DNA of 50,020 bases from Acidimicrobiia bacterium (GCA_041576165.1 JBFGLM010000035.1:1-50020), one strand, 5' to 3'. Shown: positions 3 through 6,502, counted from the first letter of the stretch. A program made the numbers and translations. Notes: generated by a model not told the origin, from the letters alone.

Positions 3-227
3 CAGGGTCCCACAGAAGCCCTTGCGGACTGCGGCTACACGGAAGGCGCCGAAGGTGAAGCCCCAGCCGAAGGTGAAGCCCCAGCCGAAGGTGAAGCCCC
101 AGCCGAAGGTGAAGCCCCAGCCGAAGGTGAAGCCCCAGCCGAAGGTGAAGCCCCAGCCGAAGGTGAAGCCCCGGCCGAAGACACCAGCCAGGACGAGCCG
201 GAAGCGCTCGCAAACACCTCCTCCTGA
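3..227 (+). CDS. 3' end of a protein with an acidic (AEGEAP)7 tail (partial, starts upstream of window)
   Basis: Frame 3 reads QGPTEALADCGYTEG(AEGEAP)7AEDTSQDEPEALANTSS to TGA at 225-227; not in ORF track. Confidence 0.7.
   Translation, partial: QGPTEALADCGYTEGAEGEAPAEGEAPAEGEAPAEGEAPAEGEAPAEGEAPAEGEAPAEDTSQDEPEALANTSS
48..173 (+). repeat. 18-bp tandem repeat GCCGAAGGTGAAGCCCCA x7
   Basis: Seven near-perfect copies; only the last base of copy 7 differs. Confidence 0.97.
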
Positions 228-1692: not shown

Positions 1693-2580
1693 ATGGTGCC
1701 TACAGCGCTTGAGCAATCGGTAGTGGACTCCATCCAACGCGGCGGCGTCGTGATGCTGATCGGCGCGCCCGACACCGGCAAGTCCACGCTGGCCCGCATG
1801 ATCCTCGAAGCGGCCGCGACCGCCGGACAAACTGTCGCCTATGTGGACGGAGATCTTGGACAGACCACGGTGGGTCCCCCGACCTGCGTCGGGCTGAAGT
1901 GGATCAGATCTCGCAACGACCTTGCGACGCTCGCAACGGCAGACGCGCTTCGCTTCGTTGGCAGCATCACGCCCGATCGGTTCAGGCTGCAGCAGGTGAT
2001 CGGGGTGGCGTCGCTGGTCGACCAGGCCCGAGCGGATGCCGATCTCATAGTGATCGACACGACCGGAGCGATATCAGGTGTGGTCGGTCAGACGTTGAAA
2101 TACCACAAGACCGAACTTTGCCGTCCTGATTCGATTCTGGCGCTCCAGCGGGGGAGCGAGTTGGAGCCGATAATCGGGATGCTCGAACGGTTCTTCACAG
2201 TCAGCGTGACCACGCTTCCGGTTCACCCCGACGTGTTACCCGTTTCGCCGGAGGAACGTACTGCGCAGCGGGCGCTGCGGTTCGCCGCGGCGATGGGCGA
2301 CCGCCGCCAGAAATGGCGGGTCCGGCCAACGGTCTTTGCTCCGTCGCTGCCGACGGGACTGGATCTTTCCCGGCTCCATAACATGCTGGTTGGCGTGCAC
2401 GACGGTGATGGCCGATGCCTGGGATTGGGTGTGCTCGAGTACGACGACGGCGCGCTACGGGTCGTGACGTCGGTGGGGGAGGGAATGAAAGGGTTGCGGC
2501 TCGGCTCTGTCGTGCTCGATTGCGAAACGTGGCGGACCACGACAGTGAATCTGCAGGAGATCATGTTTGGCCTGGAGTGA
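1693..2580 (+). CDS. Clp1/Grc3/Nol9-family polynucleotide 5'-kinase
   Basis: Walker A GAPDTGKST, DGDLGQTTVGPP and IDTTG motifs typical of the Clp1 family. Confidence 0.85.
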   Translation: MVPTALEQSVVDSIQRGGVVMLIGAPDTGKSTLARMILEAAATAGQTVAYVDGDLGQTTVGPPTCVGLKWIRSRNDLATLATADALRFVGSITPDRFRLQQVIGVASLVDQARADADLIVIDTTGAISGVVGQTLKYHKTELCRPDSILALQRGSELEPIIGMLERFFTVSVTTLPVHPDVLPVSPEERTAQRALRFAAAMGDRRQKWRVRPTVFAPSLPTGLDLSRLHNMLVGVHDGDGRCLGLGVLEYDDGALRVVTSVGEGMKGLRLGSVVLDCETWRTTTVNLQEIMFGLE

Positions 2581-2677
2581 GCGGGTCTTCCGGCCGTGGT
2601 CAGAAGACCCGTGCCTACCCAACCAGTGTCATGTCAGCTCGGGAGGTCCCTGCCGTGACGTGCAGGACGTGGCATGC

Positions 2678-2771
2678 AGCAACAGCAGCCCGACGCACCT
2701 TCCTCCTGAAGCGACCCGCACTTCCCCTTACAGGTAGCTCCCGATTCCAGCGCCTCGGGCTGCTGTTGCTC
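2678..2771 (-). ncRNA. Candidate ~95-nt structured RNA closed by a perfect 16-bp stem
   Basis: AGCAACAGCAGCCCGA (2678-2693) pairs with TCGGGCTGCTGTTGCT (2755-2770); starts just after a consensus promoter. Confidence 0.55.
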
Positions 2772-2776
2772 CTAGG

Positions 2777-2805
2777 ACCATATGCCACCCGCCAATCGGA
2801 GTCAA
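2777..2805 (-). promoter_or_regulatory. Sigma70/HrdB-type promoter TTGACT-17-TATGGT, overlapped by inverted repeat TCGGAGT-N7-ACTCCGA (2796-2816)
   Basis: -35 at 2805-2800, -10 at 2782-2777, exact 17-nt spacer. Confidence 0.7.
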
Positions 2806-2868
2806 TACTACTCCGAACTATCTTTGAGCAGCGCTAAATAGCGTTGATCAAGGCCGGAATTGAGGGAG

Positions 2869-2943
2869 TTGTCCACAATCCGACGGTTTCCACGGGGTAA
2901 TCCACAGAATCCACAGGGGGTTGTGCACAACCGCTGTAGACAA
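2869..2943. promoter_or_regulatory. Cluster of DnaA-box-like 9-mers
   Basis: TTGTCCACA 2869, TAATCCACA 2898, GAATCCACA 2907, TTGTGCACA 2921, TTGTCTACA (minus strand) 2935-2943. Confidence 0.65.
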
Positions 2944-2971
2944 GTTTCTGGGGAGGTGGTCTTTCGCGACC

Positions 2972-3397
2972 TCAGTGCGTGGTGAATCCGACACGGATAA
3001 GTGGTCGGAAGGCGATTTCGACCAGTTGGTACACCTCAGCGAGGATGCCCTCCAGCTCGTCCTCCGTCACACGATCGAGCGGAGTTCGGCCGCGCAGGAA
3101 AATGTCTCCATGGCGATCGATCGCGAAGTGCACCCGACGGGAATCGAAGTTGCGGAACAGGCACTGACGATAGGCCTCGTCCCGGTTCGCAGGCGGCGCG
3201 GGCAGGACATACGCCTCCGTGGCCAACGTCAGATCACCCACTTCAAACCAGATCGTCGTGAAATCCCGGGTTCGCTGGGCCACCCGCACTGCGATGCGGC
3301 CATCCAGCACTTCGGTGTAGACGACGTCGCTGTCCGGATCGGCGACCCATTGCTGAGCTACCCGGTTGACCAAACCAAAGTGTGGGTCACTGCCCAC
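2972..3397 (-). CDS. YbjN-like (T3SS chaperone-fold) protein
   Basis: Typical mshA-downstream gene; WFEVGDLTLATEAYVLPAP; GTG start at 3397 overlaps mshA stop. Confidence 0.8.
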   Translation of the reverse strand: MGSDPHFGLVNRVAQQWVADPDSDVVYTEVLDGRIAVRVAQRTRDFTTIWFEVGDLTLATEAYVLPAPPANRDEAYRQCLFRNFDSRRVHFAIDRHGDIFLRGRTPLDRVTEDELEGILAEVYQLVEIAFRPLIRVGFTTH

Positions 3398-4628
3398 GAC
3401 CGGTAATCCCGCTGTACAGCTCGAGCAAGCGGGTGGCGGTCGCCTCCCATGAGAAACGCTCCGCATGCTCGACGGCTCCGGAGGAGAGCCGGCGGGCCAG
3501 TTCGGCGTCGGTCAGGATGCGCAGCGCGGCGGCGGCATGATCGTCGGGATCCCAGCCGTCGACCAGCACGCCCGACACTCCATCCGCAACTACATGCGCC
3601 AGCCCTCCCACTCGGGCGGCGACGACCGGCAGGCCGGTGGCTTGCGCCTCGGCTGCGACGAGACCGAAGGACTCGCTCCGGGACGGTACGAGGATCACGT
3701 CTGCCGCCTGGTAGAACGTCGGGAGCCGCCCGTGATCTTGCGCAGGCCAGAACCGCACACGATCGCCCAGGTCGGCCGCTTCAACCGAATGCCGGAGCTT
3801 CTCGAGCTCCTCGCTGCCGAGGGGACCGCTCGGGCCACCAACGACTACGAATGTGGCGTCCCCAATCTCCTTCGAGATTCGGTGGAACGCCTCCAGCGCG
3901 ACGTCGACTCCTTTCAGGGGCTGGATCCGGCCCACGAACAACACCACGGGCGCTTCGCCGGAAATACCCAAGGCGCGCCGAGCCTCATGCTGGGAACCTG
4001 GTTTGAAGAGGTCGTGGTCGATCCCCGGAGGATTCAGGCAGAGCCGGGATGGATCGGCTCCATAATGCTCCAGAAGTTCCTCGGCCTCGCGCTCGGTCGA
4101 CGCAATCACACAGTCTGACGAAGAGATCACCTCCTGTTCGGCTGCGATGCGGATGAGGGACGAAGGGGGTTCGTCGTCACGGCGGTTGGCGTTCTTGACT
4201 CGCCCCAGTGTGTGAAAGGAATTCGCCAGTGGGAGCGACAGCGCCTTCTTGATCAAGAGGGCGGCCCAGCCCGACAACCAGTAATGACTGTGCACGAGGT
4301 CGAACTGCGTCCCCCGGGCCGCGATCCAGTCGATGACACCTTCTGCAAAATCTGCCACCCAGCCGGGCAACGCCGCCACGGGCAGTTGAATGGGGGGTCC
4401 GGCGTCGATGTGAACCACCGGGTAGCCACCAGCCGCCGTCTCCTCAGACAGCTGGGCCCGGTCGGTGCGGCGGGTGAAGACCACGACGTCGACACCGCTG
4501 CCCTGCATGGTGGCGGCGAGTTCGTCGATATACACGTTCATGCCCCCAGCGTCTCCAACCCCAGGCCGCAGCAGCGGCGACGTATGGAGCGACAGGTAGG
4601 CCACCCGGCATATCTCGCCCTCTTGCAT
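3387..4628 (-). CDS. mshA: D-inositol-3-phosphate glycosyltransferase (mycothiol synthesis)
   Basis: SLHTSPL..PGVGDAGGMNVY, HSHYWLSG, GRIQPLKG, SESFGLVA.EAQA. Confidence 0.9.
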   Translation of the reverse strand: MQEGEICRVAYLSLHTSPLLRPGVGDAGGMNVYIDELAATMQGSGVDVVVFTRRTDRAQLSEETAAGGYPVVHIDAGPPIQLPVAALPGWVADFAEGVIDWIAARGTQFDLVHSHYWLSGWAALLIKKALSLPLANSFHTLGRVKNANRRDDEPPSSLIRIAAEQEVISSSDCVIASTEREAEELLEHYGADPSRLCLNPPGIDHDLFKPGSQHEARRALGISGEAPVVLFVGRIQPLKGVDVALEAFHRISKEIGDATFVVVGGPSGPLGSEELEKLRHSVEAADLGDRVRFWPAQDHGRLPTFYQAADVILVPSRSESFGLVAAEAQATGLPVVAARVGGLAHVVADGVSGVLVDGWDPDDHAAAALRILTDAELARRLSSGAVEHAERFSWEATATRLLELYSGITGRGQ

Positions 4629-5543
4629 TCAGGATCGCCCCTCCAGCGCGTACAGCTCTCGCGGAGCTGCACCCAGCCGGAATTTGTAGTGTTCGTCACC
4701 CTTCAGGAAATCGAAGACCTTCAGGCCCTCTGCGATCGCCTGCTCCACCAGCAGGGATACGAGAACCACCCCGGGCGACGCCTCCCTGGCTGCAGTGTCG
4801 AAAGCCGAGTTGTAGAGGTAGTAGCCGCTCGCATCCGACCAGGCAATCGCGGCCGCCACCATTTCGTCTCCGGCACCGAACAGGCCGTCGATGCGCCAGC
4901 CGGGATCGGAAGCCAGGCCCGCAAAAAACTCGGCCATGGCACTCGTCATGAATGAACCCTTCTCGCCGGGCGACATGCGGTGCATGGCGATGAACCGGTC
5001 GAGTGCGTCCCCATCGTTGCCGGAGGTGACGATCCGTGGTTCGCCGAGCGCCTGCTCGAACCGGCGCCGCTTGCGACGGGTCTCGTGCCGTTCCTTCTTG
5101 CCGATGGCCATCAAATATTCGTCAAACGTGGCCGGGAGGTGGACCACCGCCGATACGGTGTGCGGCGATCGCTGCGTAGATATGCCCAGATCTCCCAGGG
5201 CACGTTCTAGCGCATCGGCTGCTTCGACCGGCACTGAGTCGAACCGGAACGGGGTCCCTGCTCCGGTTTCGCACAGCATCTTGGCGATAGCCCCGGCCCC
5301 AGTGCCGACCGGGGACCGATAGTCGACTACGTCCTCGTGCCCGAGGAAACTCAGCTGGCCGTGCTGGATCTGGAGCGCGGCCGCCCCGTCGCCTGATGCA
5401 ATCAACAGCTCCGCTTCCTCACCATGCCATGCGCGACGGTGTTCCCACAGGGTCCGGAGGAACTCAGGAGTGGCAAATGGGCCGGTTCGAGGGGCGATCG
5501 GAGCGCCTTCGAGCAGCGCCCAATCCGCACTGGAAGTGGTCAT
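4629..5543 (-). CDS. GNAT N-acetyltransferase, CelD/BcsL-like
   Basis: YYLYNSAFD, SPGVVL, FDFLKGDEHYKFRLG; ATG at 5543 overlaps asparaginase stop. Confidence 0.85.
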   Translation of the reverse strand: MTTSSADWALLEGAPIAPRTGPFATPEFLRTLWEHRRAWHGEEAELLIASGDGAAALQIQHGQLSFLGHEDVVDYRSPVGTGAGAIAKMLCETGAGTPFRFDSVPVEAADALERALGDLGISTQRSPHTVSAVVHLPATFDEYLMAIGKKERHETRRKRRRFEQALGEPRIVTSGNDGDALDRFIAMHRMSPGEKGSFMTSAMAEFFAGLASDPGWRIDGLFGAGDEMVAAAIAWSDASGYYLYNSAFDTAAREASPGVVLVSLLVEQAIAEGLKVFDFLKGDEHYKFRLGAAPRELYALEGRS

Positions 5544-6502
5544 GCCAGCCCTACCGTAGCTTCTATACGACCAACCGGAATCCCACCGCCCAGAATCACG
5601 GACTCCAGCTCCGTCTGCAAACGGTCCGATGTCCCGGACGCGCGGAGCCCGAAGTGGGCCATGACGGCGCCGGCGACCGGTCCCAACGCCCGCACGGCGC
5701 CGTCCCACGACTTGATGCATACGCCCATACCGCGCCGGGTGGAAATCCCGAGAAGTCCTTCGGCGCCTAGCTTGGCGGACGTCTCGGTCCACCGCGCCAG
5801 CGCAACCGGGCTGGCCCGATGGTCGGCGGTGAGCGCCGCGAACCGGTGCATGGCCGTCCAGGTTTCACGCAAGGCCGGCTGCGAGCCGAGGCGGGCGTAG
5901 CCAACCGCTACTGCGGCCGTCGAGACCGCCCAGACGGGAGCACCGCACCCATCGACGCCCGGGCCGGCAGGCGTGGCGCCCAACACCTGGGCGAGCTCGG
6001 CCCGAATCGCTTCCTGCAGCGGATGCTGCGGATCGGTGTAGTGGGCGACGTCCCAGCCCTGGGCCACGCATGCACGGAGCATCGCTGCGTGCTTGCCGGA
6101 ACAGTTGTGCCACACCGACCGGGGCCGGCTATGACCGGCCCGGATGAGGCGCAGGCTGGCCGGTTCCGCCAGCGGCCAGGCGGGAGGACAACGCAATGCC
6201 CGGGTGGTGAGGCCTGCGTCGCGCAGCATCGCCTCCACGATGGCGATGTGTGCCGGGCTACCGCCGTGGCTGGCGGACGCGACGGCCATCCACTCTGGCG
6301 CCAGCGCCGCACCCAGCCGTTGGGCGACCGCAGCCTGAAAGGGTTTGGCGACAGAGCGCATGAAATACGGACGCTCGATGTCGCCCTGGTGGGCCAGCAG
6401 CTTCCCATCGGCATCGCACACGGCGATCGCTCCGTGATGTAGGGCTTCCGTTCGGGACGACCGGATGATGCGGGCGATCACATCCGCGTTCCCGGCAGCC
6501 AC
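5540..6502 (-). CDS. L-asparaginase II family protein
   Basis: RSVAKPFQA, ASHGG, HNCSGKH, GVDGCGAP, KLGAEG motifs. Confidence 0.9.
   Translation of the reverse strand: MAAGNADVIARIIRSSRTEALHHGAIAVCDADGKLLAHQGDIERPYFMRSVAKPFQAAVAQRLGAALAPEWMAVASASHGGSPAHIAIVEAMLRDAGLTTRALRCPPAWPLAEPASLRLIRAGHSRPRSVWHNCSGKHAAMLRACVAQGWDVAHYTDPQHPLQEAIRAELAQVLGATPAGPGVDGCGAPVWAVSTAAVAVGYARLGSQPALRETWTAMHRFAALTADHRASPVALARWTETSAKLGAEGLLGISTRRGMGVCIKSWDGAVRALGPVAGAVMAHFGLRASGTSDRLQTELESVILGGGIPVGRIEATVGLA

Follow-up and report, generated by a model that had tools for sequence, protein, structure and literature searches.

A conserved, predicted small RNA gene in an Acidimicrobiia genome

In a 50,020-nt stretch of DNA from an Acidimicrobiia bacterium (GCA_041576165.1, JBFGLM010000035.1:1-50020), which was analyzed as a whole and is referred to here as the window, positions 2678 to 2770 of the minus strand are predicted to form an independent gene for a small structured RNA, preceded by a housekeeping-type promoter of its own and kept in single copy throughout the family and order of the source organism. 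Shorter or diverged forms appear to be present elsewhere in the class, and in some other Actinomycetota classes the same hairpin would make up the 3' domain of longer RNAs. Taken together, the sequences point to a small RNA family that is real, has not been described before, and occurs in Acidimicrobiia and some other Actinomycetota. The pattern is not random, as judged by shuffled sequences and, above all, by conservation with covariation. The parts of the element are as follows, in window coordinates:

2678..2770, minus strand: predicted small RNA, a single extended hairpin of 93 nt with helices P1, P1b, P2 and P3 and an apical loop
2805-2800, minus strand: -35 hexamer TTGACT, from the promoter scan
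2782-2777, minus strand: -10 hexamer TATGGT, from the promoter scan
2755..2770, minus strand: 5' strand of the closing stem P1, containing the conserved GCCCRAGG block
2678..2693, minus strand: 3' strand of the closing stem P1, containing the conserved CCYYGGGC block
2721..2728, minus strand: apical loop AGGGGAAG, unpaired in the minimum free energy (MFE) fold
2796..2816, no strand assigned: 7-bp inverted repeat over the -35 hexamer, listed by the scan as terminator-like on the plus strand

Between positions 2400 and 3100 there is one sigma-70-like site, TTGACT-17-TATGGT on the minus strand, with 9 of 12 positions matching (shuffle mean, 0.3). An original prediction, made from this sequence by eye of a model, had proposed the same promoter and had set the start of transcription at about 2771, on the first base of the stem; the stem does begin just past the promoter, but its first base is 2770, 7 nt beyond the -10 hexamer. 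The perfect 16-bp closing stem that it described is present, with 2770-2755 paired to 2693-2678, and the end-paired RNA of ~95 nt that it postulated corresponds to the 93-nt hairpin, which covaries in homologues. Also as predicted, the 61-nt interior (2754-2694) contains five GGA triplets, of which the apical one alone is invariant among homologues, and an inverted repeat overlaps the -35 hexamer; judged by eye, a few close relatives have such a repeat, and it is not conserved beyond them.

The minus-strand RNA from 2775 to 2670 folds into one extended hairpin of -65.0 kcal/mol (z = -7.85; 0 of 200 shuffles as stable), and the MFE structure accounts for 68% of the ensemble. The MFE of the window hairpin ranged from -61.6 to -65 kcal/mol. 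The plus strand reaches -40.8 kcal/mol (z = -4.1), leaving a gap of 24 kcal/mol between the two, and the fold is strand specific because it uses G-U pairs. In the 5.1-Mb source assembly (96.5% complete, 7.5% contaminated) the element is single copy. The tail of the window hairpin, GCUGCAUGCC, has no U run, and no terminator was called there by the scan; U-rich tails follow the stem on its 3' side in many relatives and in all long forms (see below). The hairpin probably also ends its own transcript.

The original prediction had recognized no known family in this sequence, and database searches agree. A search with Rfam 15 at positions 2300 to 3200 returned no family match at E values up to 10 other than chance microRNA-like hairpins, and nothing in the window matched at gathering score. 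At 13 distant homologous loci Rfam likewise gave no match besides one tRNA. Literature searches, some of them with the 12-nt loop sequence spelled as DNA and as RNA, turned up no description of this RNA.

Conserved structure and covariation

Support for the structure comes from an alignment of 96 rows fitted to a covariance model (CM). Standard pairs occupy 94.0% of paired cells in this alignment versus 81.6% in shuffles, and when pairing partners are slid by 1 to 3 columns the proportion drops to 37 to 50%. Changes on both sides are seen at 14 of 25 pairs, amounting to 300 such cells against a shuffle mean of 107, and none of 500 shuffles reaches the observed covariation score. All five pairs of the middle helix covary. 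The rows were fitted to the model, and 55 of them, hand-picked for spread, were also realigned with MAFFT and submitted to free prediction with RNAalifold; all four helices were recovered, with compensatory changes at 10 of 21 pairs. The conclusions do not depend on row L038, which is taken from an unpublished genome (G039).

The consensus differs in part from the window copy. About 12 of the 16 closing pairs are common to the homologues; the outer 4 are specific to the window genome, and the inner ones are conserved or covarying. Conserved P1 consists of the blocks GCCCRAGG and CCYYGGGC, within which one pair changes from G-C to A-U in 37 of the 96 rows. Above it lie a U/U mismatch and then P1b, a fixed G-U pair (93 of 96) with a C-G pair. 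A small purine-rich internal loop separates P1b from P2, which is variable and covarying, and a second internal loop follows. P3 (CCGU/GCGG) contains a fixed U-G pair in 94 of 96 rows and carries on top a loop of 9 to 10 nt with GGGGAAG. Since the fixed G-U pairs would be C-A on the opposite strand, they cannot form there.

Of the 96 rows, 59 derive from a pattern scan in which the loop block and two flanking blocks were obligatory, and these rows also served to train the models. Because these rows were preselected by their blocks, we claim invariance of the loop narrowly, for the loci found by CM alone: all 40 such loci, which lie in family and order genomes, share one and the same loop block. 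By its sequence, the GGGGAAG(U) core appears to be the most conserved part of the RNA family.

Distribution and independence from neighboring genes

A plain DNA search of 40 relatives matched only the inner 45 nt of the hairpin, in four genomes, a fifth match being due to chance, and all four have the same hairpin with a promoter at the equivalent place. A first covariance model (R1), built from the window sequence and those of the four relatives, scores 76.4 bits at the window locus. In the family, R1 finds exactly one match in each of 29 genomes. Throughout the order, at least one match is present in 140 of 151 genomes (106 of the 110 high-quality ones), while in a sample of the class the RNA was found in 61 of 151 genomes and, outside the order, in 25 of 114. 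Several entire families of the class have no R1 match. A second model (R2), built from 96 distinct sequences, matched 13 of 140 genomes outside the class in a phylum-wide sample. Loci from a pattern scan of the genome collection that R1 confirmed all come from records labeled as Acidimicrobiia, Candidatus Spongiisociaceae, or unclassified Actinomycetota, and none of the pattern-scan matches from other phyla scored with R1.

We also looked at the CM-negative families, taking the region downstream of the mshA-like gene, which is a neighbor of the RNA in the window (see below), from 12 class genomes. An unfiltered search with R2 gave matches at E < 0.01 in 5 of the 12 regions. Across the 18.1 kb of sequence, the 8-mer GGGGAAGT occurs nine times in sense orientation, in 9 of 12 regions, versus none in antisense, and in 8 of 9 MFE folds it lies in the apical loop of a hairpin. 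The hairpin, in one form or another, is therefore present across most of the class. In a family with genomes of 1.1 Mb it was not found (0 of 35), and the mshA-like gene is absent there as well.

The promoter is conserved together with the hairpin. A motif of the form TTGNNN-16..19-TANNNT occurs within 56 nt 5' of the stem at 82 of 94 homologous loci; when the window is shifted upstream by 100 nt as a control, a single locus (1 of 94) has it. The distance from the end of the -10 hexamer to the first paired base is 7 to 10 nt at 74 of the 82 promoter-bearing loci, with a mode of 8 nt. At one locus (L046, on G033:C9) the boxes described below, the promoter, and the hairpin are inverted in place between the same mshA-like and clp1-like genes, and six distant homologues sit among unrelated genes. 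Given the conserved promoter, this inversion, and the changing neighbors, a role as a 3' untranslated region (3' UTR) or leader is disfavored.

At loci outside the class (L196 to L207), the hairpin is the 3' domain of predicted rod-like RNAs of 150 to 310 nt. These long forms have a strong promoter 60 to 260 nt upstream of the hairpin and a 5' rod with a closing helix of the kind GUCCCGAGC/GCUCGGGAC; two long forms, L199 and L202, have in addition a second GGGGAAG loop at the tip of this rod. None of the long forms matched Rfam. Six were folded, of which three (L198, L202, and L207) come from unpublished genomes (G357, G412, and G275, respectively), and the claim also rests on L196, L199, and L203.

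A conserved module with DnaA-box-like motifs upstream of the promoter

Upstream of the promoter, the window contains three further features:

2869..2943, minus strand: five DnaA-box-like 9-mers (TTGTCTACA, TTGTGCACA, TGTGGATTC, TGTGGATTA, TGTGGACAA), upstream of the promoter
2806..2868, minus strand: A+T-richer spacer from the box cluster to the -35 hexamer, from reading of the sequence
2962..2968, minus strand: CGCGAAA motif, which bounds the conserved module on its upstream side

At the level of the order, these features form a module that lies between the upstream gene and the promoter and consists of CGCGAAA, five boxes, and 60 to 100 nt of A+T-richer sequence. CGCGAAA(A) is found at the equivalent place in most order loci (L007 to L046), several order genomes have a second copy ~25 nt before the -35 hexamer, and a related form occurs outside the class (L196, L197, L206, and L207). 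The spacer is not conserved in sequence and is ~60 to 100 nt long in relatives; it may be an UP-like element.

The boxes at 2869-2943 were called with what we take to be the DnaA-box consensus and are candidates by sequence. With several near-consensus 9-mers at a conserved position, they would classify as a DnaA-box cluster, and this is the sole cluster of at least three boxes within 150 bp in the 5.1-Mb assembly, as well as the densest by a looser pattern. Moreover, these 9-mers are also found flanking dnaA where the GC skew of a complete relative (G009) switches, and they are therefore plausibly the DnaA boxes of this lineage. Among 94 loci, at least three core hexamers are present at the cluster site in 44 and none in 22; by eye, the box-free loci include G+C-rich class members in which the promoter directly follows ybjN.

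A replication origin (oriC) at the cluster was considered and rejected, since in G009 the GC skew stays negative across the locus and changes sign at dnaA. In five complete relatives, dnaA is ~11 to 51% of the genome away from the locus. DnaA-box clusters outside oriC serve as DnaA-regulated promoters and titration sites in Bacillus subtilis and Escherichia coli. The module resembles those clusters in its five close boxes, which are conserved, upstream of a promoter, and far from dnaA and the skew switch. It differs from them in that the boxes precede a small RNA gene and in that the action of DnaA is putative. A conserved cluster of this kind before a small RNA promoter offers a testable link from replication control to RNA-based regulation, and our literature searches found no report of such a link in Actinomycetota.

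Genomic neighborhood

The genes around the RNA in the window, and a second hairpin between the convergent units, are as follows:

1693-2580, plus strand: Clp1-like P-loop gene, convergent with the RNA (Pfam CLP1_P, 3.3e-30)
2583..2610, no strand assigned: G+C-rich hairpin with 8-bp arms just past the clp1-like stop codon, from reading of the sequence
2972-3466, minus strand: ybjN-family gene, upstream and co-oriented (Pfam YbjN, 6.9e-10)
3387-4628, minus strand: mshA-like GT4 glycosyltransferase gene, upstream and co-oriented (TIGR03449, 413.9 bits)
4629-5792, minus strand: Acetyltransf_6 (GNAT) gene

The convergence with a Clp1 gene that the original prediction had described is thus present. 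The hairpin at 2583-2610 is likely a terminator, which could serve both convergent units or stop read-through from either side; it was missed by the terminator scan because no T run stands behind it. The longest open frame for ybjN shares 80 nt (3387-3466) with the end of the mshA-like gene, and the true ybjN start is probably further downstream.

The mshA-like gene is upstream of the RNA at 39 of 40 family/order loci and beside it at 8 of 16 more distant loci. At 33 of the 40 family/order loci ybjN stands between the two, and at 25 a convergent clp1-like gene follows downstream at a distance of no more than 1.5 kb. In the class sample, the Clp1-like gene is restricted to the order (34 of 36 order genomes versus 0 of 115 others), and no NCBIfam model names it. 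For the mshA-like gene, the TIGR03449 cut-off of 462.5 bits is reached by 0 of 151 class genomes, which makes its identity as MshA in the class likely, although the model does not certify it. By its coordinates, this gene adjoins the RNA in many class genomes; it is also found in families where the CM sees no RNA, and RNA-bearing order genomes without an mshA-like match at an E value of 1e-80 include G038, G061, G030, and G045. Functional coupling of the RNA to the Clp1-like or mshA-like gene by co-occurrence was accordingly rejected, as neither gene tracks the RNA.

On the 3' side, the next gene is convergent (clp1-like) or variable (acyl-CoA carboxylase-like, P5C reductase, or proline dehydrogenase), and the sequence that follows the RNA is unrelated between genomes. 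An AGTCGC-like motif is weakly enriched there (8 sense versus 2 antisense loci; n = 109). Tandem repeats of 3 to 8 copies begin 0 to 32 nt past the hairpin at 8 of 109 loci, namely, L011, L037, L043, L046, L065, L085, and L123 (period 7) and L074 (period 8), and the unit sequences differ by genome.

Possible functions

Our favored reading, to which we assign a probability of roughly 45%, is that this small structured RNA gene of a new family encodes a trans-acting RNA that serves as a component of a ribonucleoprotein (RNP) or as a decoy for a protein that binds the loop and the basal helix, with modulation by DnaA in the order. Transcription from the housekeeping-type promoter would start at the foot of the hairpin, and the hairpin would probably end an RNA of ~90 nt. 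The working part would be the invariant purine loop GGGGAAG(U), held out on a covarying stem, and the basal helix GCCCRAGG/CCYYGGGC, followed by the U/U mismatch and the fixed G-U pair, would provide a second recognition surface. The protein served or captured in trans would read both loop and basal helix. In the order to which the window belongs, DnaA on the boxes ~65 to 140 nt upstream of the -35 hexamer would modulate transcription. We favor protein binding because the sequence of the helix is kept beyond what pairing needs and because the loop complement shows no enrichment, the 9-mer concerned occurring 36 times genome-wide versus 35 for the control, in a crude count that ignores position relative to genes.

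Several points weigh against this reading. The start, end, abundance, and expression of the RNA are all deduced from sequence, the genomes used are metagenome-assembled genomes and other assemblies, and the role of DnaA at the boxes is putative. Invariance of the loop and flanking blocks in the 96 rows is partly circular; distant homologues vary in the loop (GGGGAAGG and GGUGGAAGG), and two loci are without it. Of the candidate partners, CsrA and Ro60 are excluded (see below), and the neighboring genes do not track the RNA. Finally, repeated conserved loops are equally typical of Gram-positive base-pairing small RNAs.

That last point belongs to a serious rival, possible though in our judgment doubtful, in which the RNA is a base-pairing riboregulator in trans. 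Its GGGGAAG(U) loop would be a seed acting on C/U-rich mRNA sites (CUUCCCC) or titrating a C-rich small RNA, mirroring the C-rich loops of 6C or RsaE-type RNAs. An invariant single-stranded loop on a covarying stem, duplicated in the long forms, is what such a regulator would show, and a promoter of its own with a probable terminator is the layout of classical small RNAs; the crude count of loop complements does not favor it, however, there is no 6C RNA in the source genome, Shine-Dalgarno regions cannot be targeted by G-rich seeds, and a seed leaves the conserved sequence of the basal helix unexplained. Binding to RNA polymerase (RNAP), as a counterpart of 6S or Ms1 RNA where neither is detectable, would be a special case of protein binding, and we consider it unlikely. 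The lack of a 6S match (RF00013) in 5 of 5 complete relatives would fit this idea, but the silence of RF00013 means little because that model is insensitive, detecting only 5 of 14 control genomes. Ms1 is not reported for the class in the available parts of PMC9130861, which contain zero mentions of Acidimicrobi-, but the synteny of Ms1 is not seen at this locus either. An RNAP-bound RNA of ~85 nt, scr0792, is described for Streptomyces coelicolor in the available parts of PMC11077062, and the homologues outside the class are rods of 150 to 310 nt; against these stand the internal loops of a few nucleotides, with no central bubble resembling an open promoter, and a length of 90 nt, half that of the shortest 6S RNA cited in those parts of PMC11077062.

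We find all of the remaining explanations improbable. A 3' element of the mshA-like/ybjN operon, whether a terminator, an mRNA-stabilizing hairpin, or an insulator between convergent genes, would account for the co-oriented position just behind the mshA-like gene, whether or not ybjN intervenes, and for the U-rich tails behind the hairpin in many relatives. Such an element has little chance of being correct, given the conserved promoter between the upstream stop codon and the hairpin, the module inverted in place at L046, the six distant loci beside unrelated genes, and the order genomes that have the RNA without an mshA-like match; nor would a terminator need the invariant loop and the conserved helix sequence. 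Even less probable is an element acting as DNA, such as a protein-bound palindrome or cruciform that forms a secondary origin or a DnaA-titration site together with the boxes. The densest DnaA-box-like cluster of the genome and an A+T-richer stretch do adjoin the hairpin, but the conserved G-U pairs and the gap of 24 kcal/mol denote a structure of one strand, the GC skew of the complete relative changes sign at dnaA and not here, and the hairpin is retained in class members that have no boxes. Least probable of all is a leader or small-protein gene, in which the hairpin would hide a ribosome-binding site before a 27-codon GTG frame, as the original prediction had allowed, or would belong to a 57-codon frame at 2615-2788. 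In the window, GGAGGAAGG is followed by GTG, and the open frame is listed; nevertheless, the GTG is not conserved (89 of 96 homologues have GGTT, not GGTG), the lengths of indels among homologues do not go in steps of three, the sequence past the hairpin shows no relation from genome to genome and its genes are variable or convergent, and the 57-amino-acid frame has no Pfam match. A riboswitch or leader was rejected, as no same-strand gene is conserved downstream.

In an extended form of the RNP reading, which we regard as a long shot, the hairpin would be the conserved core of a so far unrecognized, phylum-level RNP RNA, a GGGGAAG-loop RNA, that captures an RNAP, translation, or RNA-decay factor, fills the empty slot of 6S or Ms1 RNA in Acidimicrobiia, and is directly controlled by DnaA in the order; if so, the state of replication initiation would be relayed to a global factor through a small RNA. 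More generally, a single copy and a fixed loop from family to class, traceable in other classes, are the signature of a core cellular RNA rather than of a niche regulator. Sea water, sediments, soils, sponges, and activated sludge all harbor abundant Acidimicrobiia, a class for which, to our knowledge, genetics hardly exists and small RNAs have not been described. A covariance model of this RNA family could annotate thousands of genomes, and the RNA itself could be bait for an RNA-binding protein in a phylum that, as far as we know, is without Hfq and ProQ and mostly lacks CsrA.

Comparison with known RNAs

Signal recognition particle (SRP) RNA is among the known RNAs nearest to this one. Like SRP (4.5S) RNA (RF00169), the RNA described here is a single extended hairpin of ~100 nt, single copy in each genome and present almost throughout its lineage, with a conserved apical region and conserved noncanonical stem elements, and the window copy has GUAAGG/GUCAGG-like letters beside the loop, as do the SRP RNAs of relatives. 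Unlike SRP RNA, it has no GNRA tetraloop on the distal stem, and the A of the SRP-like CAGG is not conserved in homologues. An SRP identity was rejected: neither RF00169 (threshold, 40 bits) nor RF01854 matched at the locus or in the assembly, and 21 of 29 family genomes carry an RF00169 match above the cut-off elsewhere than the R1 match, as in G009, where the two lie at 1.506 Mb and 0.987 Mb. SRP RNA is itself absent from the source assembly, probably because of an assembly gap.

Several GGA purine tracts, one of them in a hairpin loop, and a loop motif repeated in the longer forms recall CsrB/RsmZ. In contrast to those RNAs, only one GGA tract, the apical one, is conserved of the five in the window copy. 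The sponge suggested in the original prediction is excluded in its CsrA version by a phyletic mismatch: of 151 order genomes, 140 have the RNA but only 12 have CsrA, and CsrA was found in 0 of 18 other members of the family. The source assembly does encode a CsrA homologue (89 bits, at G000:C82:10255-10407), which could reflect patchy inheritance or a contaminant contig. As in bacterial Y RNAs, a long conserved stem joins the 5' end to the 3' end, and in the order a gene for RNA end processing (Clp1-like) adjoins; unlike in Y RNAs, the Clp1-like gene is absent from RNA-bearing class genomes outside the order. The 96.5%-complete assembly contains no TROVE/Ro60 (PF05731) gene, and no Y RNA model matched, so that a Y-RNA-like identity, also raised in the original prediction, finds no support. 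With 6C RNA the family shares small size, occurrence in actinobacteria, and short homopolymer-like loop motifs on conserved hairpins, but its loop is G-rich rather than C-rich and it has one hairpin instead of two; with this G-rich loop and no match to RF01066 at the locus or in the source genome, 6C was rejected.

The last group for comparison comprises 6S, Ms1, scr0792, and CoRP RNAs. 6S RNA was rejected as an identity: RF00013 did not match, and an RNA of 93 nt with internal loops of a few nucleotides contrasts with a rod of ~180 nt with a large central bubble. For Ms1, the accessible text of PMC9130861 gives the synteny as HAD-IB hydrolase and oxidoreductase genes; the neighbors here are the mshA-like, YbjN, and Clp1-like genes, and Ms1 is ~300 nt long, so this candidate was rejected too. 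The family differs from the whole group in having no central bubble, no CM match, and other synteny, the sequence comparison with Ms1, scr0792, and CoRP being that of the Rfam scan. Still, it resembles these RNAs, as they are presented in the accessible text of PMC9130861 and PMC11077062, in being of an abundant type, promoter driven, rod-like, and, as is often the case in Actinobacteria, lineage specific. In size it is near scr0792 (~85 nt; PMC11077062, accessible text), and its long homologues are rods of 150 to 310 nt. In the same portion of PMC11077062, every species is proposed to possess an abundant RNAP-binding RNA of its own, and more lineage-specific ones are expected.

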